Of a stretch of 64,000 nucleotides of DNA, positions 20,304-54,863 are shown piece by piece. Below the pieces are notes generated by a model that saw nothing but the letters and a program-made list of their open reading frames with translations, ran no database searches and was not told where the DNA came from. The first letter of the stretch is position 1. Each line of letters starts with the position of its first letter. The translations under genes and the position numbers were made by a program. The DNA is from an uncultured Verrucomicrobiae bacterium (GTDB taxonomy: Bacteria > Verrucomicrobiota > Verrucomicrobiia > Chthoniobacterales > Terrimicrobiaceae): NCBI GenBank assembly GCA_963706955.1, contig CAVPOC010000008.1:128001-192000 (forward strand). The letters are read 5' to 3'.

Positions 20304-20632
20304 ATGGCGAGGAGCTTGCGGAGTGTGTATGCGGGCGCCTATTACCATGTGATCGCGCGAGGAAACCGTCGTGAGGAGATATTTTTGGATGAGGAGGACC
20401 GGTGCTTTTTCTAAACGCTGTGTCGGAGGTGTGCGCTCAGACCGTTTGGATGGTGCACGCGTGGATGATCATGGGCGATCAGACCGTGGCGTCTTGCGGA
20501 TGGCTGGCGGCAAGCCTGAAAATGCGGAGCACGGCGAACGTGAGTCAGACGTTGAGAAGAACCGAATGGAAGAGCCTCTTAAAGAGGCCGCCCCGAACGC
20601 TCGCCGAGTATATCGCGAAGGAAAGAAGCTGA
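20304..20632 (+). pseudogene. Internally deleted and frameshifted REP-associated HUH/Y1 tyrosine transposase (RAYT-like)
   Basis: MARSLRSVYAGAYYHVIARGNRREEIFLDEEDR/FLNAVSEVCAQTVWMVHAWMIMG joined directly to the C-terminal QTVASCGWLAASLKMRSTANVSQTLRR; HUH and Tyr segment missing; followed by the end TTTGCACACTGAACCCC. Confidence 0.8.
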
Positions 20633-20681
20633 ATCAATTTGCACACTGAACCCCAATGCGGACCCCCGCTCGATGGAGAGG

Positions 20682-21170
20682 TTAGGCAGCCCTTTCGGGT
20701 GGCGCTCCGCGGTAGATGACCTCGAAACGCTCGCAGACGATTGGCATTCTCGGACTTGGCACTCTTCTAATACGTTTGCATACTCTTCCGAAGTACGCCC
20801 AATGGACTTCGCGCCAATAGCGCAATGATCCATCGCCTTCGCCTTCGATAGCGGCAAACTCCTCACTGACTTCCTCGAAGGGAACAGTCGCCACCGCCTT
20901 GGTTTCGATGACACACAGCGGCTCACCTTGCCAGTTGGTCACGACGCTAAGGTCGCTGGGCTTGGGAGGTGGCCTGTTTTCCGCTTCGAAGGACCAGGCC
21001 AACCCAGCAGTCGCTCGCTTCGTTCCGACAAGAACGAGCCGTCCGAGCTCATTTGCAGCTGGTTCGTTGTCGTCGAAGTGGAAGGCCTCGTAGAAGCGGG
21101 CTTGAACATCACCTCCGACGATGGCTTGAAACTCGAGCCAGAAGGGCTGAATGGAGTGGGGGATGGTCAT
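20682..21170 (-). CDS. ASCH domain protein (YhfF-like), copy 1
   Basis: ANELGRLVLVGTKRATA, FAAIEGEGDGSLRYWREVHWAYF, VCERFEVI. Confidence 0.85.
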   Translation of the reverse strand: MTIPHSIQPFWLEFQAIVGGDVQARFYEAFHFDDNEPAANELGRLVLVGTKRATAGLAWSFEAENRPPPKPSDLSVVTNWQGEPLCVIETKAVATVPFEEVSEEFAAIEGEGDGSLRYWREVHWAYFGRVCKRIRRVPSPRMPIVCERFEVIYRGAPPERAA

Positions 21171-21283
21171 TAGGCTCTCGGTTGCAGCGCGTGGCTGAGC
21201 AGCAGTGTCAGCCCAGGCATTGTGTTCCTCGCACCAGTGGCGCAAGAATATGATTTGCGCAAGCTGGACGCCCTCGAGCGACG

Positions 21284-21397
21284 CTAGCTAGAAAAGGCAT
21301 TTACGAGCATGCTCGTGATAATTCCCGCGATCATGACAACGTTGTGGCCCCAAATCAGGACGTTGAGTGCGGCTAGGAAAACAACTAGAGTGTTCAT
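21284..21397 (-). CDS. 37 aa hydrophobic peptide, copy 1
   Basis: MNTLVVFLAALNVLIWGHNVVMIAGIITSMLVNAFSS; ORF is intact in both copies. Confidence 0.4.
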   Translation of the reverse strand: MNTLVVFLAALNVLIWGHNVVMIAGIITSMLVNAFSS

Positions 21398-21933
21398 AGA
21401 GTGTTTATTGGGTAGAACGGTTTTTGCGGGCTGGGGTTTCCGGTTATTTCGGAGATCGCCTCGAACGCAGAGACCCGCCTCGGACATGCAGAATCCATTG
21501 ACCTTCATGGCTGCACTGATTAGCTCGTGCGCCCCGTGGAACAACGTCGCCCCTTCCGACGCCAGCCAACCGATCACAATTTCGGCTCGTCCTTGATGCT
21601 CGCCGTTACGGCCTCAGAACCAGCTAGTTCCACGTTTTACTACAAGCGCGGTGTTGGCCTGGCGGGCTCGGACGCCCGTCCTCGGCATTAAAGAGGTCCG
21701 CGAGAAGTCCGAGGGCGAGAAAGCCTGCGGTCAAGGATTTGATCGACCACTTCTCGCAGCAGGCCTTAGAGGCATATTCCGACCGCACGAGAAAGGATGT
21801 CTTGGCGTTTCCTCACAAGTCCCCAACATTAATAGGATAGCGGCAAAAATTCTGGCCAGAAATCCCGAAACTGCGCGTGAGTAAGGATTCGCTTTTAGAG
21901 CGCCACCGAAAGAGCTAAGAGCATCGTAATCCT

Positions 21934-22470
21934 GTGCGAACCTCGAGAGTGTTGGTCTTTGTGGATGAATCCAACGTCGTCAGCTCAGTGCGGCCACTCG
22001 GTCGAAAACTAGACTGGCTAAAGCTCCGCGATCACCTCGCGAGTGCCGATCGGGGACGGGAATTAATCGAGATGGTCATCTACGCTGGGTTACCTCCTCC
22101 AATACCCGACTGGCAAACTGAACGAGATAAGAAGAACAAGTTCCTGCATTGGCTTCGCTCCAACGGATTCCTCGTAGTGGCGAAAGATGGCTCGCCCGGA
22201 GATGGCAAACATTACAAGGCAAACGTCGACGTCTTGATGGCGATCGATGCAGTCGAGCTTTCCGTCGAGATGCGTCCCGACGTCGTCGTTCTGGTGACGG
22301 GCGATGCTGATTTTGCACACCTAGCTTTGCAGCTCCGGCGGCGTGGGATTCGAGTGGAAGTGGCTGCGACCGCTCAGACGCTGGGCACTGGATTGAAGGG
22401 CGCAGCAAATGAGGTGATCGACCTGGTTCCTCTGTTTGAAACATTTGAGCCAATGACACCCGCCGATTAG
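21934..22470 (+). CDS. NYN (LabA/DUF88, PIN-like) domain ribonuclease, copy 1
   Basis: VFVDESN, KANVDVLMAID, LVTGDADF, GIRVEV and LKGAANEVIDL motifs. Confidence 0.9.
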   Translation: MRTSRVLVFVDESNVVSSVRPLGRKLDWLKLRDHLASADRGRELIEMVIYAGLPPPIPDWQTERDKKNKFLHWLRSNGFLVVAKDGSPGDGKHYKANVDVLMAIDAVELSVEMRPDVVVLVTGDADFAHLALQLRRRGIRVEVAATAQTLGTGLKGAANEVIDLVPLFETFEPMTPAD

Positions 22471-22557
22471 GCGAGCGTTTCAAGAACTCGCTCGACGTTG
22501 TGAAGGTCCAGGAAACTCGGCATTGTGCCAGCTTTACCCGGAACTCTGCGAGCAGAT

Positions 22558-22756
22558 GGGGTCGGTCCTATAATTTAAACATGCGGCACGGCTTAGCCTG
22601 CATGCTCTTTAACTTTTCAGGACAGCGGTGGGAATCGATCGTCTTCGTCACAATCGCTCCTGCAAACCTGCCGACGCCAAATTCGGCTTCGCAGCGATCT
22701 CTCGGGTAGCCAACTACTGCCATCTGTATAAGGATGTGTATTATAGGACTGACCCC
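22558..22756. mobile_element. MITE-like element, 199 bp, with GGGGTC terminal inverted repeats
   Basis: GGGGTCGGTCCTATAAT ... ATTATAGGACTGACCCC; interior homologous to the other copies. Confidence 0.85.
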
Positions 22757-23009: not shown

Positions 23010-24422
23010 CTACCAAGAACCAAAATCTCCCTTGAACTTTGCGGGTATTGCCTTCCTAACTTCGACTGCAAGCGCCTTTCGGACTTCCTTGCGAGCCATT
23101 GTCGTTCCGTCTTCGCCTCTTTGGGTATCCTCTTGTTGGTTGTGCTTTATCGCTTCGTCCTGCGGAGCTGCTGTTTTCGGCTTCTGGCTATGAATAACGC
23201 CACTGACTTGAGGCGTAGAGGTATGATCCGAATTTGAACTATCCGGAGATTCGTGCGCCTTGATGCTGGACTTGATCGAAGTGTTTGCCCTCTTCTCCGC
23301 TTTTTCTCTGTCGATTCTGGCTGTCTTGCTCACAAGCGCCTTTCGGATTTCCATGCCATCCATTGTCGTTCCGTCTTTGCCTCTTTGGGTATCCTCTTGT
23401 TGGTTGTGTTTTATCGCTTCGTCCGGCGGAGTTGCTGCTGTTTTCTGGCTTTGAATAGTGTCACTGACTTGAGGCGTAGAGGTATGATCCGAAATTGAAC
23501 TATCCGGGGAATCGTGCGCCTTGATGCTGGACTGGCTCAAAGTGTTTGCCCTGTTCTCCGCTTTTTCTCCGTCGATTCTGGCTGTCGCGCTCACAGGCGC
23601 CTTTCGGACTTCCCTGCCATCCATTGTCGTTCCGTCTTTGCCTCTTTGGGTATCCTCTTGTTGGTGGTGTTTTATCGTTTCGTCCTGCGGAGTTGCTGCT
23701 GGCTTCTGGCTTTGAATAATGCCAGTCACTTGAGGCGTAGAGGTATGATCCGGATTTGAACTATCCGGGGAGTCGTCGGCCTTGATGCTGGACTTGCTCA
23801 AAGTGTTTGCCCTGTTCTCCGCTTTTTCTCTGTCGATTCTGGCTGTCGCGCTCACAGGCGAAAAGACAAGAAACAACGCATAGGCCGCAACTAGCAGTAC
23901 CACCGAACCAAGAAGAAGCAATGCAGCCTTCTTCCGGGGCGAAGATTTGATCACCTCGGGAGAGGGCGTAGAGGTCTTTATGCCCGAGTGAGCCTCCGCC
24001 CCAGCATGGATGCTTTGCCACCATTGAGCGTCATGATTGCTGATGCGTTCAAAGGCGGCCAGCTGCTCGATCATCGATTCCCTGCCTACGATTGTCTCCA
24101 CCAAGTCGCCTGCCAGATTCTCAAGTGCTTGGTCGCTGTGCTGCTCTGCTAGGAGAAGAACGCGATGAGCTTTCCTGTACATAACCCTGGATCCACACGA
24201 AAGATTCGCGTCAGCGAGCGCGGTCTGTGGATAATTCCTGCAAAAGTAGACGTTGAGTCTCCTAACGTGGCGCGCTCGTCTTTGCTGTGGATCCTCTCCA
24301 TTGGCGATCGCTTCGAGCAGTTCGAAGCCAAATTGCGAGACGTCCGGTTCGTTCATTTGCTTGCCCAGCGCAATCCCTGCACGAGCTAATTCTTCGTCTG
24401 ATTGTGTACCGTTCATTTTCAT
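23010..24422 (-). CDS. Hypothetical TM protein with three ~87 aa low-complexity tandem repeats
   Basis: TM ALLLLGSVVLLVAAYALFLVF; repeat unit VSATARIDREKAENRANT...EDTQRGKDGTTMDGREVRKA, period 261 bp. Confidence 0.7.
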   Translation of the reverse strand: MKMNGTQSDEELARAGIALGKQMNEPDVSQFGFELLEAIANGEDPQQRRARHVRRLNVYFCRNYPQTALADANLSCGSRVMYRKAHRVLLLAEQHSDQALENLAGDLVETIVGRESMIEQLAAFERISNHDAQWWQSIHAGAEAHSGIKTSTPSPEVIKSSPRKKAALLLLGSVVLLVAAYALFLVFSPVSATARIDREKAENRANTLSKSSIKADDSPDSSNPDHTSTPQVTGIIQSQKPAATPQDETIKHHQQEDTQRGKDGTTMDGREVRKAPVSATARIDGEKAENRANTLSQSSIKAHDSPDSSISDHTSTPQVSDTIQSQKTAATPPDEAIKHNQQEDTQRGKDGTTMDGMEIRKALVSKTARIDREKAEKRANTSIKSSIKAHESPDSSNSDHTSTPQVSGVIHSQKPKTAAPQDEAIKHNQQEDTQRGEDGTTMARKEVRKALAVEVRKAIPAKFKGDFGSW

Positions 24423-24639
24423 GCGGTGCGTTGCGGAGCTTACTTATCCCACCCCGTAGAAGCAAAGGCGTGACCAGAAGCTGCTTCATGTTGCCTTATG
24501 GAACCCCTCTGTCCAGATCATTCCCATACTCAAGAGCAGGAGCCGTACCTGGTGGGGCTCCCGGAAACACGCGCTTGCCTTCAGCCAGCCCGGTAGGACT
24601 GGAGCAATTGGGCAGCAGATGCGCTCGGTTCGAGCAGAT

Positions 24640-24889
24640 GGGGTCGGTCCTATAATTTACATGTTGCCGCGCAGATTGGCTTGCATGCTTCCCTTAGCTC
24701 ACCCACGGGAAAAGCGATTAAGCGCTCGACTGCTTTTGTTGCCGATCGCTCCTGCAAGCGCCAGGCTCCATGTCGGCTACCGTTTTCCCATTTCCTGTAA
24801 CCCTTAGTTCGGCCGCTCCGGCAAACTCTCGCCGCAATTTCCTAACAACACATGCTGGCTTGAGAGATGTATTTTATAGGACTGACGCC
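24640..24889. mobile_element. MITE-like element, 250 bp long subtype
   Basis: GGGGTCGGTCCTATAAT ... TTTTATAGGACTGACGCC; an orphan end of another type, TTCAATCTTCAAGTCCTGACCCC, ends at 24922. Confidence 0.8.
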
Positions 24890-25021
24890 GTCCATTTGGT
24901 TCAATCTTCAAGTCCTGACCCCTATAGTCGACGCGCGTGACGGGGCAATGCGGTCACTGCTCTGCCAGGAAAATGGTCAATCACTCTGGCTTAACTCTGG
25001 TTTGCATATCCTGAGCCTTTA

Positions 25022-25228
25022 TTACTCGTGAATGCGCAGCAGATGCTCCCAGGCGCGGAAGTCTCCATTGAAACCCAGGCTCTGCGCGATCTGGTAGCTT
25101 GAGAGGACCTCCCGCTCGATAGCCTTGTTTCCCTTGTTGGGGCGCTCGCAGACTTGCCGATACTGCTTTCTTGCCTGGTAGAGATGCGCCACGAACTTGT
25201 CAGCTTCACTTGATTCCAGCAGCGCCAT
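25022..25228 (-). CDS. Small hypothetical protein, 68 aa
   Basis: MALLESSEADKFVAHLYQARKQY...GFNGDFRAWEHLLRIHE; protein-like composition. Confidence 0.55.
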   Translation of the reverse strand: MALLESSEADKFVAHLYQARKQYRQVCERPNKGNKAIEREVLSSYQIAQSLGFNGDFRAWEHLLRIHE

Positions 25229-25654
25229 CAACTTGGCAAGCGTCTCCTGTGTGGCCTTCGCCAGCGAACTTCGATGCCGCGAACCTCTCAATCGCGAGCG
25301 GGCTTCCACTCACTCAAGTATTCGGGGCTGGTGCCCGCTATCCAATTCTAGCTAAATTTGCCGGGCTGGACTCGGTTTCCACGGCCCTCGCGAAGCATGG
25401 CCCCATGAAATTCCCAATCTGTCTCAACGCCTTGTGAAACCCTTACGGGGTCGTCGCATGCCCCATTTGCCGCAACCGTAGTTTAGCTAACGATGGCAAA
25501 CTTGGGTTGCGAATAGTCTAATGCTCTTAACGAGATGCGCCATTAAACCACTTAGTAACAAAACTAATGTAAAAAGCATTTTCAACAAGTTTACTACTTA
25601 TCGCTTGATTCCGCTAAGCTTCGTGGTAGCGATTGCGCCTCAAAACCGACAATT

Positions 25655-25996
25655 GTGGCTTCAAAACTCCCAGTCTTAGTGTTTGCGCTCGCTTTGGCGC
25701 AGGCAAGCATTGCTCAATCACAGATCTCGTTCGAATGGGTGACCATCGGCGATCCTGGTAACCACAATGATCCGCTAACCGATGTTCCAACCGGCGGTGT
25801 GACGCCACCTCCGCGCGGTGCGGTCCCATACGTCTACAGCATTTCGAAGTATGAAACCAGAATTGGCCAATACACCGCTTTTCTTAATGCCGTGGCAAAA
25901 TCCGATCCCCATGGCCTGTATCATCCGGACTTGGGCAAACTGGAGCAGATCAGGGGCGTACAACTTCCTTTCGGCACATCCTCAAGAAACACTTAG
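25655..25996 (+). pseudogene. N-terminal fragment of a secreted FGE-sulfatase/SUMF1-like protein
   Basis: Signal peptide, then ISFEWVTIGDPGN...GAVPYVYSISKYE..IGQYTAFLNAVAKSDPHGLY; ends far short of a full domain. Confidence 0.65.
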
Positions 25997-25998
25997 AC

Positions 25999-28785
25999 AT
26001 GAAAAAGCGACAAGCTTTACAAACGGCCCAGCGTAACGTCCGACTCGGAAAGGCGATTTGCGTAGCCGTCGCCGTTCTCCTTGTAGGTGGTGTAGCCAAC
26101 TTCGCGGCCTTCGGCATAATACGTTTTGAATATGACTTCACGTCGGAGACCGGAAGAGTCTTTTCTCAGGATCCTATCCCAGAGGGCATTACCTTTTCGG
26201 GCCTTACGTTGAACAACGTTGTCAAGCTCGGGCCATCCCCAATTCCCGGCATAGGAGGTACTTTATTTGGACCATGGGACCCCCCAATAGATCACTATAT
26301 ATCGTTTACAATTTTCGCGCCATCCGGATACCAGTTGCACGTGACAAGCTATGATGCGTTTGTGACAATTGGGGCTATTGCCCAGCTTGAATTGTCTGGT
26401 CCTGGCACCTCGGAAGAGGTCAAGATGCGCATCTTCAAAGGCGCTGGTATTCAAGATCCGCGTCCACTTTCTACTTTAAGGGGAGAGCTCAGTCTGATCT
26501 CCACTTACATGTTGGAAGTTGGATCCGGCAGCGGGGACGGTGCCTATGCGACAGGCACGATGGTCACAGTGATCGCCGACCCGCCGCCGACAGGCCAGCA
26601 TTTTGCAGGCTGGTCGGGTGACATTGCCATCCTTTCCAATCCGTTCCTGGCCACCACGACGGCGATAGTACCCTCCATGAATGTGAAGATTTTCGCGATG
26701 TACTCGGAGCTGCCAACATATACTGTAACAGTGACAAACGGGAGCGGCGACGGAAACTATCTCGCCGGAGCGCAAGTTGCGATCTCCGCGGACGCGGCGC
26801 CCCCGGGCCAGCAATTCGCGGGCTGGACCGGGGAGGTGACCTTCGGCGATGCCTCGTCGCCAACGACCACCTTCACGATGCCGTCTTCTGCAGTTGAGGT
26901 CACGGCGACCTACTCTGATTCCACTGGCACCGGTACGGGCCTGCGCGGGCAGTACTACAACGACAGCAGTAGTGCGTCGTATCCGCCGGCCAATCCGTTC
27001 GCGGGTTCCCCGGTTCTCACCGGCACGGACGCCACGGTGGATTTTAGCTGGGCCGGTGGTTCGCCCGGTTCTCCGGTCACCTCAAATTTCTTCTCGGCAA
27101 AGTGGACCGGCCAGGTGAAGGCGCCTATGACGGGAAGCTACACCTTCACGGTCACCGGCGATGATGGAGTGCGCCTGTTCCTCAATGGCGTCAAGGTCAT
27201 CGATGGATGGAGAGATCAGGGTGCCACGCCTTACACCTACACCACGACGCTAACTGCGGGCACATTGTATAACATCGAGCTGCACTACTACGAGCATGAG
27301 GGTGACGCCGCGTGCCGGCTGCAATGGAGCTATCCCGGACAGACAACTCAGGCTATACCGCAGAGCCAGCTCTATCCGACCATGGAGGAAACGCCGGGCA
27401 CAGGTCTGCGCGGGCAGTACTACAATGACGGCAGTAATACGACGTATCCGCCGGCCAATCCGTTCGCGGGTTCCCCTGTGCTTACACGCACGGATGCCAC
27501 GGTGGATTTCACCTGGGACACCAGTTCGCCAGGTTCCCCGGTTACCTCCAATTTCTTCTCAGCGAAGTGGACCGGCCAGGTGAAAGCGCCCGTGACGGGA
27601 AGTTACACCTTCACGGTCACTGGCGATGATGGAGTGCGCCTGTTCCTCAATGGCGTCAAGGCCATTGATGCATGGAAAGATCAGGGTGCCACGCCTTACT
27701 CCTACACCACCGCGTTAACGGCCGGCACATTGTATAACATCGAGCTTCACTACTATGAGCATGAGGGTGACGCCGCGTGCCGGCTGCAATGGAGCTATCC
27801 CGGACAGACGACCCAGGCTATCCCGCAGAGCCAACTCTATCCCACTGTTGAGGCAACACCGGGCGCAGGCCTGCGCGGGCAATACTACAACGACAACAGC
27901 AGTACGCCGTATCCACTGGCCAATCCATTCGGCGTTTCTCCGGTGCTTACACGCACGGACGCCACGGTGGATTTCAACTGGGGCGGTGATTCGCCAGGGT
28001 CCCCGGTAACCTCAAATTTCTTCTCGGCGAAGTGGACCGGCCAGGTCAAGGCGCCTGTGACGGGAACCTACACCTTCACGGTTACCGGCGATGACGGAGT
28101 GCGCCTGTTCCTCAATGGCGCCAAGGTCATTGATGCATGGAGAGATCAGGGCGCCACTCCTTACTCATACACCACGACGTTAACGGCCGGCGCACTGTAT
28201 GACATCGAGCTGCACTATTATGAACATGAGGGTAACGCCGCTTGCAGCCTGCAATGGAGCTATCCAGGAAAGGCAACCCAGGCTATCCCCCAAAGCCAGC
28301 TCTATTCGAATGAATCGACCCAGGGTCATGAATTAGATCAAGAGAATGTGCCGATTGGTGGATCAGGAGGACTTGAGATAACCAGAAATCAAACTGTGGC
28401 TCAATCGTTTTCTATATCAAAGCCTGGGAAGTTGTCGAGAGTCGATATTATAGATATTAGGCATCACAGATGCCCTCCAAAAGAGAGCTTATATATATCG
28501 CTTATCGATATGTCAGGCGACCAGTTGGGACAGAACACATACTATACGAGAGAGGTCTACCCACACGAAGTTAATGGAACAATCTCGTTGGAATTCGGTA
28601 ATTACGCGCCAACTGTATCTAAGGGCGACAAATACGCCATTTATTTGAAGACAGATGCAGAGCCAAGTGGATGTACATATGCATGGGGCGGTGGGATTGA
28701 AACTTACGATGGCGGGGACACATTTATCAATGAGAGGAAAAACATCAGGGACATGAAGTTTAGGTCATACGTCACAGACAAATAG
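25999..28785 (+). CDS. Secreted multidomain protein: two InlB-B/Flg_new-like repeats, three PA14 domains, unrelated C-terminal domain
   Basis: GSGDGxY..G..V...ADxxPxGQxFAGW repeats; three GLRGQYY...FSAKWTG...GDDGVRL...YYEHEG units with a 465 bp period (26938, 27403, 27868). Confidence 0.85.
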   Translation: MKKRQALQTAQRNVRLGKAICVAVAVLLVGGVANFAAFGIIRFEYDFTSETGRVFSQDPIPEGITFSGLTLNNVVKLGPSPIPGIGGTLFGPWDPPIDHYISFTIFAPSGYQLHVTSYDAFVTIGAIAQLELSGPGTSEEVKMRIFKGAGIQDPRPLSTLRGELSLISTYMLEVGSGSGDGAYATGTMVTVIADPPPTGQHFAGWSGDIAILSNPFLATTTAIVPSMNVKIFAMYSELPTYTVTVTNGSGDGNYLAGAQVAISADAAPPGQQFAGWTGEVTFGDASSPTTTFTMPSSAVEVTATYSDSTGTGTGLRGQYYNDSSSASYPPANPFAGSPVLTGTDATVDFSWAGGSPGSPVTSNFFSAKWTGQVKAPMTGSYTFTVTGDDGVRLFLNGVKVIDGWRDQGATPYTYTTTLTAGTLYNIELHYYEHEGDAACRLQWSYPGQTTQAIPQSQLYPTMEETPGTGLRGQYYNDGSNTTYPPANPFAGSPVLTRTDATVDFTWDTSSPGSPVTSNFFSAKWTGQVKAPVTGSYTFTVTGDDGVRLFLNGVKAIDAWKDQGATPYSYTTALTAGTLYNIELHYYEHEGDAACRLQWSYPGQTTQAIPQSQLYPTVEATPGAGLRGQYYNDNSSTPYPLANPFGVSPVLTRTDATVDFNWGGDSPGSPVTSNFFSAKWTGQVKAPVTGTYTFTVTGDDGVRLFLNGAKVIDAWRDQGATPYSYTTTLTAGALYDIELHYYEHEGNAACSLQWSYPGKATQAIPQSQLYSNESTQGHELDQENVPIGGSGGLEITRNQTVAQSFSISKPGKLSRVDIIDIRHHRCPPKESLYISLIDMSGDQLGQNTYYTREVYPHEVNGTISLEFGNYAPTVSKGDKYAIYLKTDAEPSGCTYAWGGGIETYDGGDTFINERKNIRDMKFRSYVTDK

Positions 28786-28815
28786 GGGTTCTCTCAACAG
28801 TCGGGGGGTCACGAT

Positions 28816-28978
28816 GGGGTCAGATCTTTGACTTATGACATTTGCGCGATCTCCTTCTGCAGAATCCTGAACGCGCGGTCCAGACCGGCATTTTCTGGAA
28901 TCCTCCTTGTCAGGCGGCGCACAGCTTGGGCCACCGCCGAGTCATCGATCCCGCCGGCCCATTCGGCGAGTTCTCGGT
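28816..28978 (-). pseudogene. 3' remnant of a RAYT-like HUH transposase (C-terminal HTH tail) running into its end
   Basis: Minus strand reads YRELAEWAGGIDDSAVAQAVRRLTRRIPENAGLDRAFRILQKEIAQMS*VK then ATCTGACCCC; resembles the DnaA-like HTH tail of these transposases (recognition, not a search). Confidence 0.65.
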
Positions 28979-29001
28979 AAAGAAGGGGTCATCGGTAAGA
29001 A

Positions 29002-29244
29002 GGGGTCAGGACTTGAATCTTGCGCAGACGACAGGGGACAAATTCATCCGTTTCTTTTTCTCGTTGCTATTCCTCCTATATCCCACATGTGGGTCAGCTC
29101 GGATAGTCGTGCTCACTCTAGAAAAGCGCCACGTATTTGACAGAGCTGACCCCATGCCCCCTCTGTGATACTCCAAGCGCGACTGCCGTGGCATCCTGCT
29201 CCTGACAACGGCTGCAGAATACTCAATGTTCAAGTCCTGACCCC
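29002..29244. mobile_element. MITE-like element of a second end type, with an internal extra end
   Basis: GGGGTCAGGACTTGAA ... TTCAAGTCCTGACCCC perfect 16 bp IR; internal GGGTCAGCT at about 29091 and AGCTGACCCC ending at 29153. Confidence 0.75.
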
Positions 29245-29719
29245 TTTCGTCGTGCACGGCGACATTGTGGTCATCGACTCTCACGAATCGATCAACACAG
29301 CTTTCTGGGGCGAGAACATGACGATGTCGGCGCTCAATCGAGGTGTGGTTGCCGCAGTGATTGATGGTGCGTGTCGGGATGTCGAGGAAATCCGGAGGAT
29401 GAGGTTTCCCGTGATTTGCAAGGGAGTTGTTCCCAACGTAGGCGCAATCGCAGGCTATGGGCACGTGAACGTGGCGATTCAGTGCGCTGGAGTGTCGGTT
29501 TTGCCAGGGGACATCATTGTTATCGATGGCAACGGCGTGGTTGTCGTGCCAATGGAAGAGGCTGCTGCGATTCTGCAGGGGGCGCAGCGCCTACTGGATA
29601 CGGAGCGTCTCCTTCAGGAGAAAATCAAAGCTGGCGCGACAATCGGCGAGCTTGTTAACGTCGACGAGATCTTTCGGACAGCGTTCTCGTATCAGAATAA
29701 GGCGCTGGAACACGGGTGA
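29245..29719 (+). pseudogene. 5'-truncated RraA/HMG-aldolase family gene
   Basis: GDIVVID..AFWGENM..GVVAAVIDGACRD..VSVLPGDIIVIDGNGVVVVP; the N-terminal portion is replaced by the element ending at 29244. Confidence 0.8.
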
Positions 29720-29852
29720 TATCCCAAGGCACTTACGCAACAGTTATTCTTGGCCCAAGCCCCCGGGACAATGCCTACGTGTTGATGGCGGACTTCGGGG
29801 GGCCCGCTCCCACCAAGGTAACGCCTGCCCATTTCGCAACAGCCTCTTTAGT

Positions 29853-30390
29853 TTAGTTAGGGTATTCGCTGCCAAGCGGGAATGACTGCCATTTCTCCTC
29901 GCCACTAGCGAAGATGGCACCGAGGCGGTGCGTTGTTTGCTCTTCGAGTCGGGCCGAATCGGCCAGCCAAATATCGATCATCTTTTGCGTCCAACCCCAC
30001 GGGTTAACACAGATGACGCACACGCCACCCGCCACATACCTGCACCGGGAGTGAGGGATATTTCCCGTCGATCCGCCAGCTATAGAGCCGACCAATGAGG
30101 GTGGTGGTTTTTACCATCCCCTGATGCTGGATACCGTTCCGGTAAATGTTCCAAAACCGCTTGAAGAAGGTGTGATTCACGCCGAGGAACTCCGCCGCTT
30201 TGTTTTGAAACGGGGCACCGTCTTGTACGTCTTGGGTGCCAGTCATTGAGCGGAAATACCGCTCGCAGAGGAAGAGGCCGATGGACATGGCTACGAATGC
30301 GCCACCGCCGCCCTCGACGGATTTGATAGCCTCAAAAGGCTCGATATACCACCGCGTGAATTTCTCACGGGAAGTTGTAGGGACGCCCAT
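29853..30390 (-). CDS. Putative HEPN-like (RxxxxH) protein; frameshift near 30035
   Basis: FWNIYRNGIQHQG motif; second frame continues GVCVICVNPWGWTQKMIDIWLAD. Confidence 0.5.
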
Positions 30391-30596
30391 TATTTCCTGC
30401 GCGGTGGGGTGGGTTTCGGGAGTTCGAGGTCCTTCCTTGCCTTCTCTTGCAAAGCCAGAAGCCGCCTTTGCAGGTCAAATGCCTGCTTGTAGAAATCATC
30501 CGTTTTGTTGTAATAGCGGTTAAAGTTTCGAGCGCAGTGGAGCTGATCGGCAAGCGACTGCTTGCCCCATTGGTCAAGGGGGTTTTTCTTGGGCAT
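30390..30596 (-). CDS. Small basic helical protein, 68 aa, translationally coupled to the HEPN-like gene
   Basis: MPKKNPLDQWGKQSLADQL...PPRRK; TAATG stop/start overlap at 30388-30392. Confidence 0.5.
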   Translation of the reverse strand: MPKKNPLDQWGKQSLADQLHCARNFNRYYNKTDDFYKQAFDLQRRLLALQEKARKDLELPKPTPPRRK

Positions 30597-30872
30597 GGTA
30601 TATCGCTGCCAAAGAGCCCGCAGCCTGTCGAGGCTATCTAAGCCTCTGAGCATTGGTTTCACGCCCCGCCACTGCATTAGAATGAGCATTCTCGTCGACC
30701 ATCCCTCCGGCGAGTTCAAGGTCATGGGGGCGCAAAGGACAGATGTGGCGCTGACCAGCAAAAGAGCCATCAGCGTTGCAAGCACTATCCACTCGTGAGC
30801 GACTAGACCTGCCCGAATTTCTCTCGTCGGTCTCTAAAGGGGACAACGCCGAGTCGCCAAAGTTAAAACCGC

Positions 30873-31280
30873 TCAGACTAGTCCGAGCTGTTTATCCAAT
30901 CCCTTTCGGTCAAAATACACTTCTTCTGAGCGAATCTTGTCTCCCTCCAGGTGAAATATGGAAGCTCCGCGAAGTGTGACTGAGCGTCCAGAGGGAGGTT
31001 TGTCATCGGCTCCCGGACCGGAGTTCGTGCCACGCACTATCCACTCGTGAGCGACTACACCTGCCCGAATTTCGCCGGCCTCGATAACCTCTACAGACAA
31101 GTCGGGAAAGGCCGTCCACACTCCTTTAACGAAGGCGGCAAACTCCTGTCCGCTGACACCCTCCGGCGGAGTATCCGGACTGCGGTATGTGCCGCCTTCA
31201 ATGAATGCTCCTACAAGCGCGTCAGCGTCTCGTCTGTTCCACGAATCATGGTAGCGTTGGGTTACGTCTTCAGCTTTCAT
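30873..31280 (-). CDS. SnoaL-like (NTF2-fold) ester cyclase family protein
   Basis: RYHDSWNRRDAD, TAFPDL, EWIVRGTNSG, PPSGRSV, GDKIRSEEVYFD. Confidence 0.85.
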   Translation of the reverse strand: MKAEDVTQRYHDSWNRRDADALVGAFIEGGTYRSPDTPPEGVSGQEFAAFVKGVWTAFPDLSVEVIEAGEIRAGVVAHEWIVRGTNSGPGADDKPPSGRSVTLRGASIFHLEGDKIRSEEVYFDRKGLDKQLGLV

Positions 31281-31360
31281 GTGGGGCGAATCAAGCCAGT
31301 GACGGTCGAATTAAAACCAGCCAACTTTTTCCTTTAAACCCGTTGAAGGTGTTTTGGCAA

Positions 31361-31538
31361 GGGGTCATTTGAGATTCTTTGAGGCATGGCGGAATCTCCA
31401 TACGGAACTCGGATTCACGTAGTTTTGCCTTCCGTATCACCAAACCAGAAGATCCCCGTTGCCTGTGAGAATGTCATTGCGGAGTCGATGTTGCACCGAG
31501 CACCGACGACAACCTCTTGACTTTGTTGACGATGACCC
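31361..31538. mobile_element. Degenerate GGGGTCA-ended element
   Basis: GGGGTCATTTGAG ... GACGATGACCC; only a 7 bp IR. Confidence 0.4.
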
Positions 31539-31539
31539 A

Positions 31540-31620
31540 AACACGTGCTGCCAGATCACGCCAGCGATCGGCGTGCCAGCCATGAATCCCAAGACGACGA
31601 TTTTTTCTTTCTCATTTCAT
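31540..31620 (-). pseudogene. N-terminal fragment of a glycosyltransferase-like gene
   Basis: KEKIVVLGFMAGTPIAGVIWQH, then breaks at the TGACCC end (31533-31538). Confidence 0.45.
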
Positions 31621-31664
31621 CGCCCGGCGGCTGCGTTACGCCATGCCGCTCATAAATCAGCGCT

Positions 31665-32735
31665 TCATTTCGGTTCGAGTTGAAATACGATCAGGCGCGG
31701 GTTCCTGAGCAGGCAACGGGAGCGGCTTTGCAGCTCTTCAAAGAGACGCGGGTAGATTTCCAGCCACCAGAAGGCCGAAAACAGGAAAATCAAGTATCTG
31801 ACGCCCTGGCGTTGCAGCCGCTCCAACTCCTGGAGCGCGGCTTCGTCGTTGACAGGAGCGCCCCAGTCCACGCCGTTGCGCTCGACGAAAAAGAACCGCC
31901 GATAGGCGGAGAGTTCCGCGTCCGTCCAGCGGTTTTCGGGGTCAACGAAAGCGACTGGTTCCCCTGGCGGTATCAGAGCCCTGACCTCTTCGATAGATTG
32001 GTCAGTCTGCGAGCCCGCAAGGCCATCAATCGCTTCCTGGAGAGCGAGCACTTCCCGATCGAGCCGATCTCCGCGACGTTCTATGCACAGGACATCGCCG
32101 TGCGACGCATCCTTGTAAGCAACGAATTCGCGAGCGTAGAGGTCCGAGATGAGTGACTTGGTTTTCTCCCGTTCTGCGTTTCTCGGATGCAGCTCCATCA
32201 CGATTTTTCGGACCGTTCGCAGATCAATCTCCGAGAACAGTTCGAATTCCCCGCCTTCGATGTCTATCACGAGCACGCTGGGCTGGATCCGCGCGATTTC
32301 TGCATTCAACAGTTTCGCAGGCACCCTCACCGCCCTCGTCCGCTCACCCCGCGAGGTGAGCGACGACTTCAGAAAGGTCTCTTCGAGGTAAAAGGTGCGC
32401 TCGCCGCCCTGATGGGCCAGGACACAGATTTCTAGATGCGGAGAAACCCCATTCAGCTCGTATGTGTCCCGTATCACCGCCTCCAGCTCTGGGTTTGCCT
32501 CGAACGCATAAATGTTTTCTGAACCTACCACCTTTGCACAATGCGAAGACAAAAAACCGATGCCTGCCCCGATCTCCATCACGACGTCTGTTGGTGCCAG
32601 GATGGCAGACAAGCCTCGCATCTCCTCCTGCTCATAATTTCCGGACAGGATGCGTTCCCTAATGTTTTGGGTAAGATGCTCACCGAGCCGAAGTCTGACG
32701 CCGGAAACCTCGGCGACTGTGCCTGTCACGGCCAT
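31665..32735 (-). CDS. FkbM family methyltransferase with an extra C-terminal domain
   Basis: VMEIGAGIG, YAFEANP, VIDIEGGE, MELH. Confidence 0.88.
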   Translation of the reverse strand: MAVTGTVAEVSGVRLRLGEHLTQNIRERILSGNYEQEEMRGLSAILAPTDVVMEIGAGIGFLSSHCAKVVGSENIYAFEANPELEAVIRDTYELNGVSPHLEICVLAHQGGERTFYLEETFLKSSLTSRGERTRAVRVPAKLLNAEIARIQPSVLVIDIEGGEFELFSEIDLRTVRKIVMELHPRNAEREKTKSLISDLYAREFVAYKDASHGDVLCIERRGDRLDREVLALQEAIDGLAGSQTDQSIEEVRALIPPGEPVAFVDPENRWTDAELSAYRRFFFVERNGVDWGAPVNDEAALQELERLQRQGVRYLIFLFSAFWWLEIYPRLFEELQSRSRCLLRNPRLIVFQLEPK

Positions 32736-33101
32736 GATGATTGAATGTTGGTCGGTAACTGATAGGACTGATACGAAAGCGCTTTGGCCCTCCGGTGCGT
32801 TGCCGGGAGTTTAAAGCCGCAAGCGTGCGTTTGGCCGCAGAGTGGCAAAAGTGGGGCTGGAAGTCAAACCACAGGCCGCTGGAGTGCAGGGGTGCTGAAC
32901 GCGGAGGAACCGAGCACCACTACTTCCGTAGCGAGGTGAAGCCGAGCCACAATTCGAGACCAAACCCGTACCAGTAGCAGGAGAATTAAATACCCATCAA
33001 CGATCCCGAAATTGACCTATCTGTTAGTTTTGACAGTATCGGAGGCTTCCAGCGTCTTTTTTAATGGTCGCCGTAACTAATCTGAGGATAGGAAGAACCA
33101 A

Positions 33102-33536
33102 GTGAAACGAATCTTCTTCATAATGATCGGTGCCACAGCGTTGTTGACGTTGATGGCTGGGTGCACCACCACGACGACCAGTACACAGGACGAAGCGAGG
33201 AGCATGCTCGTAGCCTCCGGCTTTAAGATGATTACCCCCAAGAACGCCGCGCAACAGCAAAGGCTCCAACAACTTCAAACTGGCCAGGTAGCCACGATCC
33301 AGAAAGACGGGAAGACCTACTACATCGTCGCGGACCCGCCTCGGAACGTGGTCTATGTGGGTGGACCTACTGAGTATCAGGCTTATCAACACCTTCGCGC
33401 TCAAAGGCACCTTGCGCAAGAGAAGGCCGAAACTGCTGACATGTATGAGGACGCGGCGATGGACTGGGGTAGATGGGGTGGCTGGGGGCTTGGCTGGGGA
33501 AGAATGGGTTACGGACCACGCGTTGGGATTTATTAA
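33102..33536 (+). CDS. Putative lipoprotein
   Basis: GTG start with RBS; lipobox LMAG-C; Gly/Trp-rich tail. Confidence 0.75.
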   Translation: MKRIFFIMIGATALLTLMAGCTTTTTSTQDEARSMLVASGFKMITPKNAAQQQRLQQLQTGQVATIQKDGKTYYIVADPPRNVVYVGGPTEYQAYQHLRAQRHLAQEKAETADMYEDAAMDWGRWGGWGLGWGRMGYGPRVGIY

Positions 33537-34054
33537 ATATGGCGTCATGCGATCGGCTCCAAAACTTTGCGTGGCCGATCGCCTAGCCAATCGCTTTCGT
33601 TCCTTTACACCACAGGCGGCCGAAAGGTAGTGCCTCACTGATCAGATCCCCCACGCTGCGTTTATCTTGTGTGAGCGGACTCGTAGGCGGGCGATGGAAT
33701 GAACAGCGGTCATGGGGCCATTCGCCGCATCGTCTGGTTAGGTCTATTGGTCAGTTCTCGCCTCGGCGGAGAACTCCAACGGTCACGCCGCTGTTCTAGT
33801 AAAGCCGGAATGCGCTTCATGCATCTAAAACTACGACTGAGCGACGCGCAGTAGTCCATTCGCTCGAGGCGGCTAGTTCCGCGTGATTCGTTCGGTTCGT
33901 GAGTCTCAGAAGAAATCTCCCCTGAGAAGCTTGCCGTTGACTATCCAGTATGGCGTCGTCGCTTGATCATGATCGACGCCGGATACCTGTCTTATGGCGC
34001 TTGTGAGCGACAACTCGCCGTCGCGCAGAAATGCGAAGGGGCGTCAAGAAGTCC

Positions 34055-34300: not shown

Positions 34301-34499
34301 TGCTGAGAATGGCGCGATGTCGTCATTGAAAATGTGACGAGAGCGTCAATTTTGCAATTGAATGACCTTCCCCAAGGAGTCCTCAAAGCGTCTCGCTTAA
34401 TCCTTGGCTTGCTCCCCCGGCTGGTGTGTTACCGTGTCGGTGCCGCTTCGTCCCCCCAAGTATTTCCTTACGCCGGCGGCTGGGTGACCTGAATCCCAG

Positions 34500-40824: not shown

Positions 40825-41256
40825 GGCGACGTCTGCAATGGCACAGGAGACCGAAGAAAGCAAATGAGGGGATGCAGCCAGGGCGTCGGTGCCAGATTAG
40901 CCCAAAGGCGAAGAACGCCCACCTTTCGTCGCCCTTGTGCTACATCCACAACGCTTTTGCGCCGAGCGTATGCCTGGTCTGCCCAAAGCTATGTTATTTG
41001 CAGATCTCCCAATCATCAAAGATCTGGATTGGTGAGCCGTCGCGCTGAACGAAGAAGAGCGCACACAGCCAAATACAAAGAAATTGAGCCAACGCTGCTT
41101 CTCGTTGCAAGCACGCGGAGACGCAATGGTAAATGGACGACCCCTTTTGCCATTTCGATCACCTTCCGCGCCGGCTGCGGCATCGGTGGCTCCGGAATAT
41201 CCGGAGGGGATTTGACCGGGTTCAGCTCCTTGCTGATCTTTGGTCAATTGCCCACG

Positions 41257-42586: not shown

Positions 42587-42791
42587 GGGGTCAAAAGGGG
42601 AGACAACAAACCCTTAGGAGCATCTGTCAAGATCCGACCCCAGCTGCAACCCACGCAGAGTGCTCGGCGGGGACGCCGAGCACCACACCCGAGACGGGGA
42701 TGCTCCCCGGAAACGCGCAGAACGACCGGTCACGCACCGACAATTTACCTAAGCATGCGAAAGCCGCCGCAATTTCTGGCTCTCTGACCCC
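42587..42791. repeat. Cluster of GGGGTC/GACCCC ends with a nested REP
   Basis: GGGGTCAAAAG at 42587, GTCAAGATCCGACCCC ending at 42641, REP at 42660-42708, GCTCTCTGACCCC ending at 42791. Confidence 0.6.
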
Positions 42792-43616: not shown

Positions 43617-43622
43617 TCCCTG

Positions 43623-44640: not shown

Positions 44641-44989
44641 CCACCGCCACGATGATCAGAGGGAGGATCGTCGGCACCTCGTCCGGAAGCGGTGGAAATC
44701 GCGGGTGTTCCCGTCGCGCTCGAAAATCTTGTGCCAGCGCGCATAGAGCCCATACACCGCGCTCATCAAGAAGGGCGAGCACGGCTCACCCGTCGTCTTC
44801 GCCAGCAATTCACGAAGACCGAACAGACGGAGGCAAGAAGGGGTCGGTCATTCAATATTGCTTTGTGGGAACATGCCTCAGCGAGTCGGTGTCGGAGCGT
44901 CCACTCTGCAGCGGATATCAGGAATTACTGTCTGACCCTTTTGCTTCCCGGACCCCTTTCGCTAGAGAGGGGCCTCCTCCGGTCATCGT

Positions 44990-45957: not shown

Positions 45958-46359
45958 GGGGTCAGTCCTAATATTTTTACATTTTCCCGTAATCAGATTG
46001 CAGACCCACGGCGGGGGCGAGAAGAAGGGTCAGCCATTTGATATTGATTATCGCTAGCCGGCGGGAACGGATACACACACATTCGCCCTTATTTGGGAGC
46101 CAACCCCCTCGAGTCTCGCGAAGGCCTTACGGCCAAGTCGAGCGGCCGGCCGGGTCATTGTCCACTTCGCGAAGGGATGCTCCCACGCATGAAGCCGAAG
46201 GGAAGAGAGTTGGCGTTTTCCGCCATTCAATCAAGATCCGGATAAGCGAGCGTCCCGCTGAAGGGAAAAAAGAGCGCCGACAGCCAAACCAAGATTTGGG
46301 CCACGCTGCTACTCGTTGCAATTTCGTTGGAGAAAATTGCAATATTAATGGCTGACCCC
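45958..46359. mobile_element. Orphan GGGGTCAGTCC end plus an element of a third end type
   Basis: GGGGTCAGTCCTAATATT at 45958; GGGTCAGCCATT (46027) ... AATGGCTGACCCC (46359). Confidence 0.7.
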
Positions 46360-52247: not shown

Positions 52248-52474
52248 TTAGTGCGAACTATTCTGCTTGCTTAGTCAAAAAGACCTCTCCCAGGTCATTT
52301 GCTAAAAGATCGATAACGTCCTCGCCGCGAAAGGTCCGGCACCGTTCGTTGCGTGAGTCAGAATCGCCGCCGGCTGCGCCAAACCTGCGGAGATGCAGCC
52401 GAGCGTAGGAAACCGATTCTCGGAATGCTTGCACATTGAGATCCACAATGTTATGAGCTTAAAGCCTCACTCGC

Positions 52475-52834
52475 ATGAAGTCTTTGCTCGGCCTCGGAAA
52501 GGGCTTCGCCTTCATGCTCAGCTTCTGCCTTATCCTCTTGGGCAATGGTTGCGCGACGTATTATGTCTATCAGGGCGGTGGTCATCAGCCGGGCGGCCCC
52601 TGGTCGAAGCCGAGGCCACTCAATGCCTCGGCTTGGGGACTTTTTAGGGGGGATGACAGCCTCAAAGATCCGGATGTCTGTCGGCTGCCAGACGGAACGC
52701 AGGTAGGATTCGATGCTGTGAAGATCGAAACCAACGTGCTGGCGAGCGTGCTGACTCTGGGAATTTGGATGCCGGCTAAAGTTAGTTATCGCTGCGCACA
52801 AGCGCCTCCCCCCTCTGGAACTTCGGCGGATTAG
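52475..52834 (+). CDS. Bor/Iss-like lipoprotein
   Basis: Lipobox-like LGNG-C; C-terminal VLTLGIWMPAKVSYRC. Confidence 0.6.
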   Translation: MKSLLGLGKGFAFMLSFCLILLGNGCATYYVYQGGGHQPGGPWSKPRPLNASAWGLFRGDDSLKDPDVCRLPDGTQVGFDAVKIETNVLASVLTLGIWMPAKVSYRCAQAPPPSGTSAD

Positions 52835-52854
52835 TTCATATATCTTGTCCTGGC

Positions 52855-54399
52855 ATGCCAATCGTTCCAGCAGACCAAAGTCCGTACGAATGGGCCAATG
52901 AGCATCGCACCGTAGGGACCACGCTGGACAAATATTTCACGGCATATAATCCAACTTCGCCGCTGAATAGAGGACTATCCGCTATGGAGATCCTCAGGAC
53001 CGCGGCTCGGGAACTCGAGCAACTCTTAAAAGACGCCCGCTCGGCTAAGAAGCACTTTAGGGCGCAGGGGGCGGGCTGGGCGCTTAATGATCTTGCCATG
53101 ACGATGCCCAATGGTTGGATGCTCTGGACAACAAATTTGAACGGCCACTGGGATGTTAGTCCAGTGCACCGTCACCCCAAATACAGCGCCGCGAAACTTA
53201 AGAACCTTGTCCTGTGTCAAGGCGGGGCTACGGTCGGCAAGCTGAACGAGTATCTTGAAAACCGGACAGCCAATCGGCGTGCGTTTCAGACTTCCGGAAT
53301 CGGAAATGGCCAGAGCATTGCGGGAGCTATCTCAGGGAGTACGCACGGTTCGGCGGTCCGCTTTGGAGCGACGCCCGACTACGTCGTCGGACTACAGTTG
53401 GTGACCGGACGCGGGAAAAGCCTGTGGCTGGAACGCGCCTCATATCCTGTGATGAACGACCGATTTATTGCCGACCTGAAGGCGGATCTTGTGCGGGACG
53501 ACGATGTCTTCGCCGCAGCGCAAGTGAGTTTGGGCGCGTTCGGCATTATCGCCTCATTAGCCTTTGAAGCCAACGAGATCTATCATCTCGCATTTCCCAC
53601 CGCCCGGGAAATCACCCAACAACAATTGGGCCAAGAGCTGGAGACGTTGGCCGATGTATCAAACGAGGACGATAGCAAATGGTATCACTATGAGTTCATC
53701 TTCAATCCATATAGACTGAAACCGATCCTCGTGGCTGCCGCTAAGAAGGTGCCATATTCAGGGCATATTCCGCCCCCGAGAGGAGCGCCGTGGGAGCTTG
53801 ATAGTGCCTGCCTGACACCTTCGGATAATCTGCCCGCGTGGGTTCTGAGACTGCCAATTCCAAGGCAAATCACCGGTTATCAGTGGAAGTGGTACCGGCA
53901 AAACGCTCTCCTGGAGAACTGGACGGGCACACCCGGCCAGGTTTTCTCAGCCACTTCGACATACTTCAGGGGTATCGTGGAAACAGCGTTCGCAGTTTCT
54001 ATCGTTGATGCCATCAAAGCCATGGACATCAGCATAGATATTGTGAGGAAGCAGCTCGTCCCGAGTATGTGTCAAGCCCGTGTGGTTCATCCGACCAAGT
54101 CCATGCTGGGCTTTACACAGCATAGTCCGAAGACGGTTGTTTTCGAGTTCGCCATGGCGAAAGGAAAAGGGCACGCGAAGTTTGAAAACGAATTGCGAAG
54201 AAGGTTCGCCGATGCCGGTATCGCCCATACCTTTCACTGGTCAAAGAACTCTGGCCTAACCGCCGCACAAATTCGGAAGATGTATGGAGAGGAAAGAGTT
54301 GGGAAATGGTTGGCGGCACGCGGTTACGTTTTCGACAATGATCCGGAACTCCAAAGAGTCTTCGACAGTCCGCATACCGTCCGAGGCGGACTCGCCTGA
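52855..54399 (+). CDS. FAD-binding oxidoreductase (aldonolactone oxidase-like)
   Basis: RAQGAGWA, GQSIAGAISGSTHG, VSLGAFGII, HWSK. Confidence 0.85.
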   Translation: MPIVPADQSPYEWANEHRTVGTTLDKYFTAYNPTSPLNRGLSAMEILRTAARELEQLLKDARSAKKHFRAQGAGWALNDLAMTMPNGWMLWTTNLNGHWDVSPVHRHPKYSAAKLKNLVLCQGGATVGKLNEYLENRTANRRAFQTSGIGNGQSIAGAISGSTHGSAVRFGATPDYVVGLQLVTGRGKSLWLERASYPVMNDRFIADLKADLVRDDDVFAAAQVSLGAFGIIASLAFEANEIYHLAFPTAREITQQQLGQELETLADVSNEDDSKWYHYEFIFNPYRLKPILVAAAKKVPYSGHIPPPRGAPWELDSACLTPSDNLPAWVLRLPIPRQITGYQWKWYRQNALLENWTGTPGQVFSATSTYFRGIVETAFAVSIVDAIKAMDISIDIVRKQLVPSMCQARVVHPTKSMLGFTQHSPKTVVFEFAMAKGKGHAKFENELRRRFADAGIAHTFHWSKNSGLTAAQIRKMYGEERVGKWLAARGYVFDNDPELQRVFDSPHTVRGGLA

Positions 54400-54620
54400 T
54401 CTTCGCGGAATCAGCCAGCGAGTCTTGCGCCGCATCGTTGGTGTGGTTCGGCCTGCATCGGCGGCCTTGCGACACCGAACAAATTTTACAGAGGATTCCG
54501 ATAGCCCCCGCATCAAAGGTTTTTGAACATTTTCGAAAAGAACACTGTCTTGGCATCAAACAGGAGGAAGGTCGCTTACTGACAAGAATTGTTTTAGTGC
54601 CCAAAAACGCACCTTCATTT

Positions 54621-54863
54621 GGGTCAGACTTATGAATGATTTACGCTCTCTTTGCCGATAGAGCTTGGAGCGATTTTGCAAACCGCGGCGATCCAGCGCA
54701 ACATCACCGAATTTCCCGATGCAGCTTTGGGGCATCGCATTTTAGCGGATGTCGTTTCGGGATTGGACTAAGCGATCCCAGCCTACGCGTGCCATGCAAC
54801 GTTGCTCGGCACCTACCCTGCGAGCTTCAGCGGTGTGTCAACTCACTAACAAGGACTGACCAC
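54621..54863. mobile_element. Degenerate GGGTCAG-ended element, about 243 bp
   Basis: GGGTCAGACTTATG ... CAAGGACTGACCAC. Confidence 0.45.

Follow-up and report, generated by a model that had tools for sequence, protein, structure and literature searches.

Within the window analysed here, a 64,000-nt stretch of the genome of an uncultured Verrucomicrobiae bacterium, positions 20304-54863 form an island of unrelated accessory genes punctuated by short ends of the form GGGGTCRG. Sequence comparison indicates that these ends are the terminal inverted repeats (TIRs) of TIRtrons, elements whose transposase TIRYT belongs to subclass 2.1 of the Y1/HUH enzymes, and of miniature inverted-repeat transposable elements (MITEs) derived from them. 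Several gene pieces join at these ends, which therefore probably serve as sites of splicing and so contribute to the growth of the island, although not every join lies at an end. On balance, the region appears to be a long-lived hotspot downstream of rfbB, at which TIRtrons of several sub-types, MITEs and one-ended fragments pile up and their ends join.

The excess of the end motif in the island is pronounced. In 20304-54863 there are 20 copies of GGGGTCRG where the genome mean (220 copies in the 4.16-Mb assembly) would give 1.83, and among 200 local shuffles the average was 3.5 copies and the highest count 12. Across the whole assembly, the richest 35-kb bins are those of the window (20) and of contig C10 at 262-280 kb (16), the next best holding 5. 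The core of the window (1-16 kb) contains no copy of GGGGTCR. The sequence-only reading, whose hypothesis called for a density above genome background and which had seen no ends in the core, is thus borne out on these points. When a library of ends built from other genomes only was used, 21 of 32 distinct ends fell in the two islands, which make up 1.3% of the genome, and 11 fell outside both.

Ends were accepted by alignment or by homology to intact elements. Among the 29 positions listed in the sequence-only reading, 22 are TIR ends or stubs (20654, 20666/7, 22558, 22756, 24640, 24889, 24922, 28805, 28816, 28985, 29002, 29244, 36728, 36924, 38910, 39108, 39240, 39483, 42641, 45958, 46026/7 and 46359), three are undecided (29153, 54621 and 54863) and four are unsupported. 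The motif at 42587 sits at the 3' end of dinB and is shared by the G004 copy, that at 42791 has near-identical counterparts in the G003, G006 and G013 copies, and those at 31361 and 31538 have neither a TIR sub-terminal match nor a homologue. Five further ends were found (36935, 41144, 44840, 44939 and 44956), and the window holds at least five sub-terminal types, where at least four had been proposed.

The link to TIRYT comes from intact elements. A search for an intact Y1_Tnp gene with such ends, suggested by the sequence-only reading, found one in the same genome: C8:542116-543165 encodes a 349-aa Y1 transposase (PF01797, E 2e-11) flanked by matching inverted ends that start (G)GGGTCAG and agree with the consensus GGGGWSAS. 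Relatives of this protein are encoded in 83 of 102 genomes of the family; 51 of 56 intact family open reading frames (ORFs) have both the HUH motif and the catalytic Y..NP, and at the loci examined both TIR ends are present for 44 of the 56 distinct intact ORFs. The same ends flank near-full Y1 hits upstream in 55 of 61 cases and downstream in 49 of 61. Left and right ends agree at 10.0 of 12 sub-terminal nucleotides within an element but at only 5.0 between elements, which argues that the sub-terminal types are the ends of different TIRYT sub-families. The predicted structure of the C8 protein (pLDDT 87) superimposes on TnpA-REP (Z 16.3, rmsd 2.1, 156 residues aligned), whilst its residues 258-347 superimpose on DnaA domain IV (Z 12.4, rmsd 1.9, 89 aligned), a domain that a Pfam search alone did not detect. 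On this model TIRYT is a TnpA-REP-like HUH domain followed by a C-terminal DnaA-domain-IV-like domain. The enzyme class put forward earlier is right, as this genome carries an intact member of a matching HUH Y1 family, but that family is TIRtron/TIRYT and not TnpA-REP with its REP (repetitive extragenic palindromic) sequences.

Intact counterparts of window types A, D and G were identified in G003, G004 and G001, respectively. Most paired ends belong to MITEs of 100-330 bp or to remnants, and the two transposase remnants noticed previously were confirmed at 20284-20666 and 28816-28978. The commonest element, MITE-A (~200-250 bp), is present in five copies in the window and six on C10. Its source is a type-A element resembling the one in G003, to whose end and gene start the copy at 36728 is 75% identical. 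No target duplication was found, the abutting direct repeat being 0-1 nt at 14 of 14 elements, and the flanks of like ends diverge ~0-12 nt from the terminus. One MITE-A copy has a 51-codon frame that is lost in the others through indels, and RNAalifold showed little covariation beyond pairing of the ends (two-sided change in 2 of 39 pairs).

Some further forms of these ends were seen elsewhere. Public metagenomes contain a shorter MITE-A of ~124 bp (L122, L128, L131, L141, L145, L153), with differing flanks and shared outer arms of 5-10 nt. Back-to-back type-A end pairs with a constant 9-nt spacer are repeated many times in one genome (L155, L159, L160, L174, L178, L190, L202, L203 and others; also L134) and could be a circle junction that has spread or a REPIN-like dimer. 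At C1:13970 and 15305 of the present genome, two type-B ends point apart around 1.3 kb.

Evidence that ends serve as joining points comes, first, from a 2.09-kb unit, consisting of an ASCH gene, an NYN gene and MITE-A, that is present twice in the island with 98.9% identity (24 differences). Copy 1 (20667-22756) begins at the stub ending at 20666, with a 2-nt overlap, and copy 2 (36936-39108) abuts exactly the stub ending at 36935; both stop at a MITE terminus, at 22756 and 39108. The two cargo starts lie 82 bp apart, copy 2 being the longer at its left, and so the cargo of each copy is bounded by ends on both sides. The start of copy 2 is corroborated by a paralogue at C2:107823 and by contigs from two independent studies (runs X1 and X7), all of which diverge at 36936; its right junction is bridged in X1 and X7.

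The arrangement of neighbouring ends points the same way. Where two ends of different type lie no more than 250 bp apart, they are arranged head-to-tail, in 13 of 13 cases (p 1e-4), of which five come from this genome's own islands; the end library used for this count included motifs derived from the island, which affects detection but not orientation. Of 376 TIR ends, 45 have an exact short tandem duplication over the terminus; among 1515 other GGGTCRG sites the number is 12, and several of these 12 control sites resemble ends absent from the library. The inner junctions of the duplications overlap positions +6 to +8 in 23 of 45 cases, and their outer starts spread from -4 to -14. Partial element copies reaching an end also flank cargo as direct repeats, at the DUF2270 locus and at loci in G011 and G082. 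The DUF2270 gene (L018:9221-10148, equivalent to C8:543221-544148) lies between two left-end copies of the intact TIRYT element, the outer copy including ~127 bp of that element.

Comparison with related genomes and metagenomes adds further joints. Sharp homology breakpoints fall at ends (-20 to +8 nt of the terminus) in 6 of 26 cases, compared with ~6% of intergenic positions (p 0.004), a tally in which neither IS110 borders nor the motif at 42791, a false end, are counted. Three of the five junctions that could be assigned to this lineage are at ends, and at L122 a 98%-identical flank bears a different end type. One contig of run X5 carries a deletion that ends 10 nt outside 36728. In run X6, a join leads from 3 nt outside the 29244 end, across 7 other letters, into the middle of the PA14 gene; it is weakened by being a single contig of depth 4.8 whose branch at 28004 falls in a repeated part of that gene. 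Apparent joints between MITEs in runs X6 and X7 (24633-38905, 24689-36818 and 36787-38908) were left unused, their short side being 27-35 nt and other copies being possible sources.

The island is not alone. A second lies at C10:262541-279665 (L015, L016), where six co-oriented MITE-A copies are found together with type B, C, D and G ends and unrelated cargo. In G004, the orthologous region just past rfbB has 10 ends in 31 kb, mostly of type C and with other cargo, and two 20-kb control stretches have none; both flanks of our locus are kept there with ~90 kb of other DNA between them. The satP gene was found in only one of 18 congeners, in a different context. Other end-rich stretches (G004:C28, G010:C4 and G017:C3) were picked for their earlier hits and speak for the existence of such regions, not for their frequency.

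The ends appear, moreover, to be targets themselves. An IS110-family element (PF01548 and PF02371) at C5:174808-176346 (L433) is inserted inside a TIR, separating its terminal octamer from the remainder, and another is found inside a MITE end on C10 (277874-278538 and 262754-263239), with similar cases at loci L437-L448; none of these sites is in the window. As 9 of 13 IS110 left ends from five congeners follow the TIR octamer, whilst the other four, from more distant paralogues, follow an A-rich site, one IS110 sub-family appears to target TIRs. The pattern was not found in 400 genomes of the phylum, a set with only two from this family. Locus L123 might be read as the loss of 15 kb between two MITEs on C10, or as proof of a cut at +7, but it is an IS110 insertion in a TIR and neither reading stands.

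How might the joints arise? The explanation we favour, on comparative evidence and with moderate confidence, is one-ended, rolling-circle-like transfer by TIRYT next to ends already in place, with recombination between MITEs assisting. The enzyme would bind the sub-terminal box, presumably via its DnaA-like domain, and nick the DNA at the terminus or a little beyond it, with formation of a 5'-phosphotyrosine. The inward-reading strand would then be displaced over a variable length (7 nt, tens or hundreds of nucleotides, or past the MITE into ~2 kb of neighbouring DNA) and its free 3' end would join another nicked end. Such transfer would account for the stubs and head-to-tail stacks, for the short tandem duplications and partial direct repeats and, occasionally, for end-to-end cargo copies. 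Homologous recombination of co-oriented MITEs and IS110 insertion into TIRs would add turnover, and a large share of the cargo joints would be ordinary illegitimate joints made before or after arrival. If transfer is one-ended, the terminal end should be fixed and the far end variable, stacks should run head-to-tail and outer arms should be short; each of these features is observed. A more ambitious proposal, which we regard as possible but doubtful, is that TIRYT ends are the attachment sites of an integrase-free accretion platform at orthologous loci across the genus. Equally tentative is its corollary that neighbouring DNA is delivered to the outer edge of an existing end, giving integron-like arrays, and that an IS110 subfamily has been retargeted to the ends.

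A number of observations weigh against the ends having so central a part. Twenty of the 26 sharp breakpoints lie away from ends; the p value for the remainder rises to 0.04 with a 10% null and to 0.06 for a relaxed set (7 of 36), and the breakpoints are not independent, many having arisen in the other genome. Two of the five junctions assigned to this lineage lack an end: 33085, common to G004, G011, G013 and run X5, and ~43760, common to G003, G012 and G013. BTLCP, satP, NYN and DUF1355 genes elsewhere have no nearby listed end in most loci, and in G017 both BTLCP and satP sit without ends. No clean empty allele of the locus was found in 18 congeners, and neither an empty site nor a circle junction was seen among the metagenome loose ends and pieces listed. 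In the tandem duplications, the +6 to +8 overlap would also fit a C|TGACCCC cut on the outward strand. Nor is the enzyme supply straightforward: the 92.5%-complete assembly has no intact type-A TIRYT, the transposase of the main MITE being in pieces on C5, and the only intact TIRYT found has a sub-terminal type differing from that of the main MITE, so that present action in trans, as proposed in the sequence-only reading, is no more than a possibility. That reading's view that breakpoints fall on ends consequently survives for a minority of them, and its picture of growth by end-bounded segments beside existing ends survives as joining at existing ends, not as a tidy cassette array.

Many of these points are what passive pile-up would produce, in which an accessory hotspot is filled by general transfer and end-joining, the elements are tolerated and breakpoints at ends reflect adjacent deletions. 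Most breakpoints off ends, the two lineage-specific joints, the end-free movement of G017 cargo and the 11 of 32 library ends outside the islands all fit, and end-adjacent deletion accounts for the 82-bp shorter copy 1 and for the X5 deletion. Concentration of the other 21 ends in 1.3% of the genome does not fit, however. Nor would one expect all 13 pairs of mixed type to be stacked head-to-tail and none back-to-back, or a stretch of cargo to be copied with an end at either border; we consider passive pile-up rather unlikely. Co-orientation raises another candidate, namely that the MITEs are passive homology blocks between which RecA-type recombination adds, removes and duplicates cargo, TIRYT having only made the MITEs and strand bias having set their orientation. 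MITE-A is co-oriented in all five window copies (four of them independent) and in all six on C10; GC skew is negative on both island contigs, which implies that the two islands face replication the same way, and TIRYT neighbours are co-oriented in 16 of 18 cases, so that replication-strand bias may be the source of the co-orientation, a further point against our preferred explanation. The MITE at C10:264570 is a chimera (its first part 64-70% identical to two copies, its middle 98-99%), showing that homologous recombination also acts. Exchange within MITEs cannot, though, make new junctions just outside the terminus with differing cargo starts or stack unrelated end types, and in both islands type-C and type-G elements are oriented opposite to MITE-A (for type C as judged from the end pattern), all of which makes recombination an improbable main cause.

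The least probable explanation by far is that an integron, or MITEs of a DDE transposase, built the array. Gene-sized cargo between ~200-bp co-oriented repeats recalls the former, and Tn3-family ends, which start with GGGG, recall the latter. A simple pattern scan of the island found no RYYYAAC...GTTRRRY attC-like core pair and there was no Rfam hit; the seven tyrosine recombinase (PF00589) hits in the genome are neither in nor beside either island; and none of the 14 elements has an abutting target duplication. For these ends the linkage to TIRYT genes speaks decisively against it.

From left to right, the island opens with a type-G TIRtron remnant on the plus strand (20284-20666) in which the 5' ~58 codons are fused to the 3' end by an internal deletion. 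Its right end is at 20654, its stub at 20660-20666 and its left end lost; it matches the intact G001 element at 88%/82% and also gives protein hits. Copy 1 of the unit follows, closing with a 199-bp MITE-A (22558-22756) that aligns as an internal-deletion derivative of a type-A TIRtron. A long form of MITE-A (24640-24889) has its left junction bridged in run X5 and its right side in X6; outside its 24889 end, a 23-nt type-B end fragment (24900-24922, minus strand) is placed head-to-tail. Next come a type-D TIRYT remnant (28805-28978, minus strand), comprising a stub at 28805, the right end at 28816 and the last ~50 codons, with coding sequence (28816-28978) 84-87% identical to G004, and a type-B MITE (29002-29244) whose left 72 nt are 97% identical to C10:271415 and whose left terminus bears a short tandem duplication (28985), the whole spanning 28985-29244.

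The middle of the island contains the MITE-A at 36728-36924 with its outer stub (together 36728-36935), unit copy 2 with its own MITE-A (38910-39108), and a long MITE-A with a degenerate left end (39240-39483); G016 homology of the MFS cargo begins 14 nt outside the right end of the last. The decayed right part of a type-C MITE (41012-41144, minus strand) travels with the dinB segment and is present in G004 too. A 17-nt type-D end fragment (42625-42641, minus strand) and 13 outer nucleotides occupy the place that in G004 holds 330 bp between dinB and the GATase1-like gene. Further on are a ~100-bp type-C MITE (44840-44939) with an outer stub at 44956 (together 44840-44956), 8 nt outside which G017 homology of the BTLCP cargo ends, and a type-A-like end fragment at 45958 stacked head-to-tail on a type-C MITE at 46026-46359 (together 45958-46359). 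A candidate decayed MITE at 54621-54863 has degenerate motifs only, with no homologue among the loci compared.

Between these features, 20667-54620 is a mosaic of gene-sized cargo pieces of 0.5-2 kb, several of which are found at 88-98% identity in other contexts of congeneric species. Most cargo labels in the sequence-only reading match Pfam: PA14, RraA, SnoaL, FkbM, eCIS_core, MFS, IMS/DinB, GATase1_like, Peptidase_C93 and Phenol_MetA_deg were hit, of which we take eCIS_core, GATase1_like, Peptidase_C93 and Phenol_MetA_deg to be the domains labelled DUF4157, DUF1355, BTLCP and SphA, respectively. The 'HEPN-like' label has no Pfam or NCBIfam hit. The sharp GC shifts that had been described are moderate, GC content being 0.53-0.63 between ends and 0.59 in the core. 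The frame at 23010-24422 (470 aa) contains ~264-bp internal repeats and matches nothing in Pfam, and that at 25999-28785 encodes a 928-aa protein with three PA14 repeats. Small pieces repeated across the genus (32765-32869, 24937-25237, 33276-33372/45855-45947 and 34456-34720), some of them fragments of an ATP-dependent ligase gene, point to further mobile pieces in the island.

Outside the island, a different short repeat with dozens of copies genome-wide occurs at 10760-10920, 7400-7890 and 14843-14880. Two other Y1 genes (L002 and L004, the latter flanked by short GGGGACAC repeats) may be its transposases. The 364-aa TPR-like frame at 16161-17255 corresponds to frames of 600-975 aa in most relatives, suggesting that accessory or broken DNA begins before 20304. 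A tRNA scan found none at the island, and an Rfam search found no family.

The elements themselves are known. TIRtrons and TIRYT were described by Di Nocera et al. (2013, PMC3733652), who gave the TIR consensus GGGGWSAS; TIRYT is subgroup 2.1.2 of TnpA-Y1 subclass 2.1 (Quentin et al. 2018, PMC6006769), a subclass that ranks second in size among the groups of Y1 enzymes and occurs in 14.9% of strains, and it corresponds to group 1 of the REP-associated tyrosine transposases (RAYTs; Bertels et al. 2017, PMC5581495). As here, the published TIRtrons combine a Y1/HUH gene with GGGGWSAS TIRs and a C-terminal DnaA-like helical domain, and show TIR dimers, clusters and element-specific TIR types; the portions of these papers available to us describe TIR repeat families, with cargo joins, mixed-type stacks, an island hotspot and a mechanism absent from that text. 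Only PMC3733652 and PMC6006769 were found under the TIRYT and TIRtron names, and a search of main texts, covering few subscription journals, found nothing on cargo capture at TIRYT ends or on IS110 targeting them. TnpA-REP, whose catalytic fold TIRYT is predicted to share, forms a 5'-phosphotyrosine and a free 3'-OH, cleaves at CT with loose spacing and has been proposed to act in rolling-circle-like amplification (Ton-Hoang et al. 2012, PMC3333891); read outward, the TIR is CTGACCCC, resembling the C|TGA iREP site of that study. REPtrons, as far as these accounts go, have GTAG-tagged REP hairpins, in contrast to the linear TIRs seen here, the confinement of repeats to islands and the kb-size neighbouring DNA apparently carried; no GTAG/GTRG hairpins were found flanking the gene, and its NF047646 score of 65 is below the cut-off of 80. 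TnpA-REP group 1 genes of the same subclass occur beside prochlorosin genes (bioRxiv 10.1101/2020.03.09.984088), likewise as full and truncated copies among variable accessory genes. What appears to be new, judging from the literature searched, is the probable use of the ends as joining points at island hotspots and their apparent targeting by IS110.

In the papers found, subclass 2.1 has neither a known substrate nor a known job, and RAYT group 1 is likewise without known function. With the present locus, named ends and an intact enzyme are to hand, together with footprints at the junctions from which cut and join can be predicted, and the question becomes directly testable. If ends do recruit cargo, bacteria would have a further route, besides integrons and IS91/ISCR, to accessory genes at fixed places, and if they form an accretion platform, RAYT group 1 would gain a role in gene capture.

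Integron arrays depend on IntI, attC and a one-gene-one-site rule. The island resembles them in its co-oriented ~200-bp repeats between unrelated accessory genes, its fixed chromosomal spot and its high turnover, but has no IntI or attC, and gene fragments and end-less joints are common. IS91, ISCR and Helitron elements capture genes by one-ended rolling-circle transfer, using different, larger HUH enzymes and distinct ori and ter ends. The fixed end, variable far end, lack of target duplication and partial direct repeats around cargo are shared with the island, whereas here the linked enzyme is a Y1 protein of ~300-350 aa, one inverted repeat serves as both ends and arriving DNA seems to land by preference at ends already present. 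The TIRYT island would probably not be a member of the IS91/ISCR/Helitron group, but would work like one.

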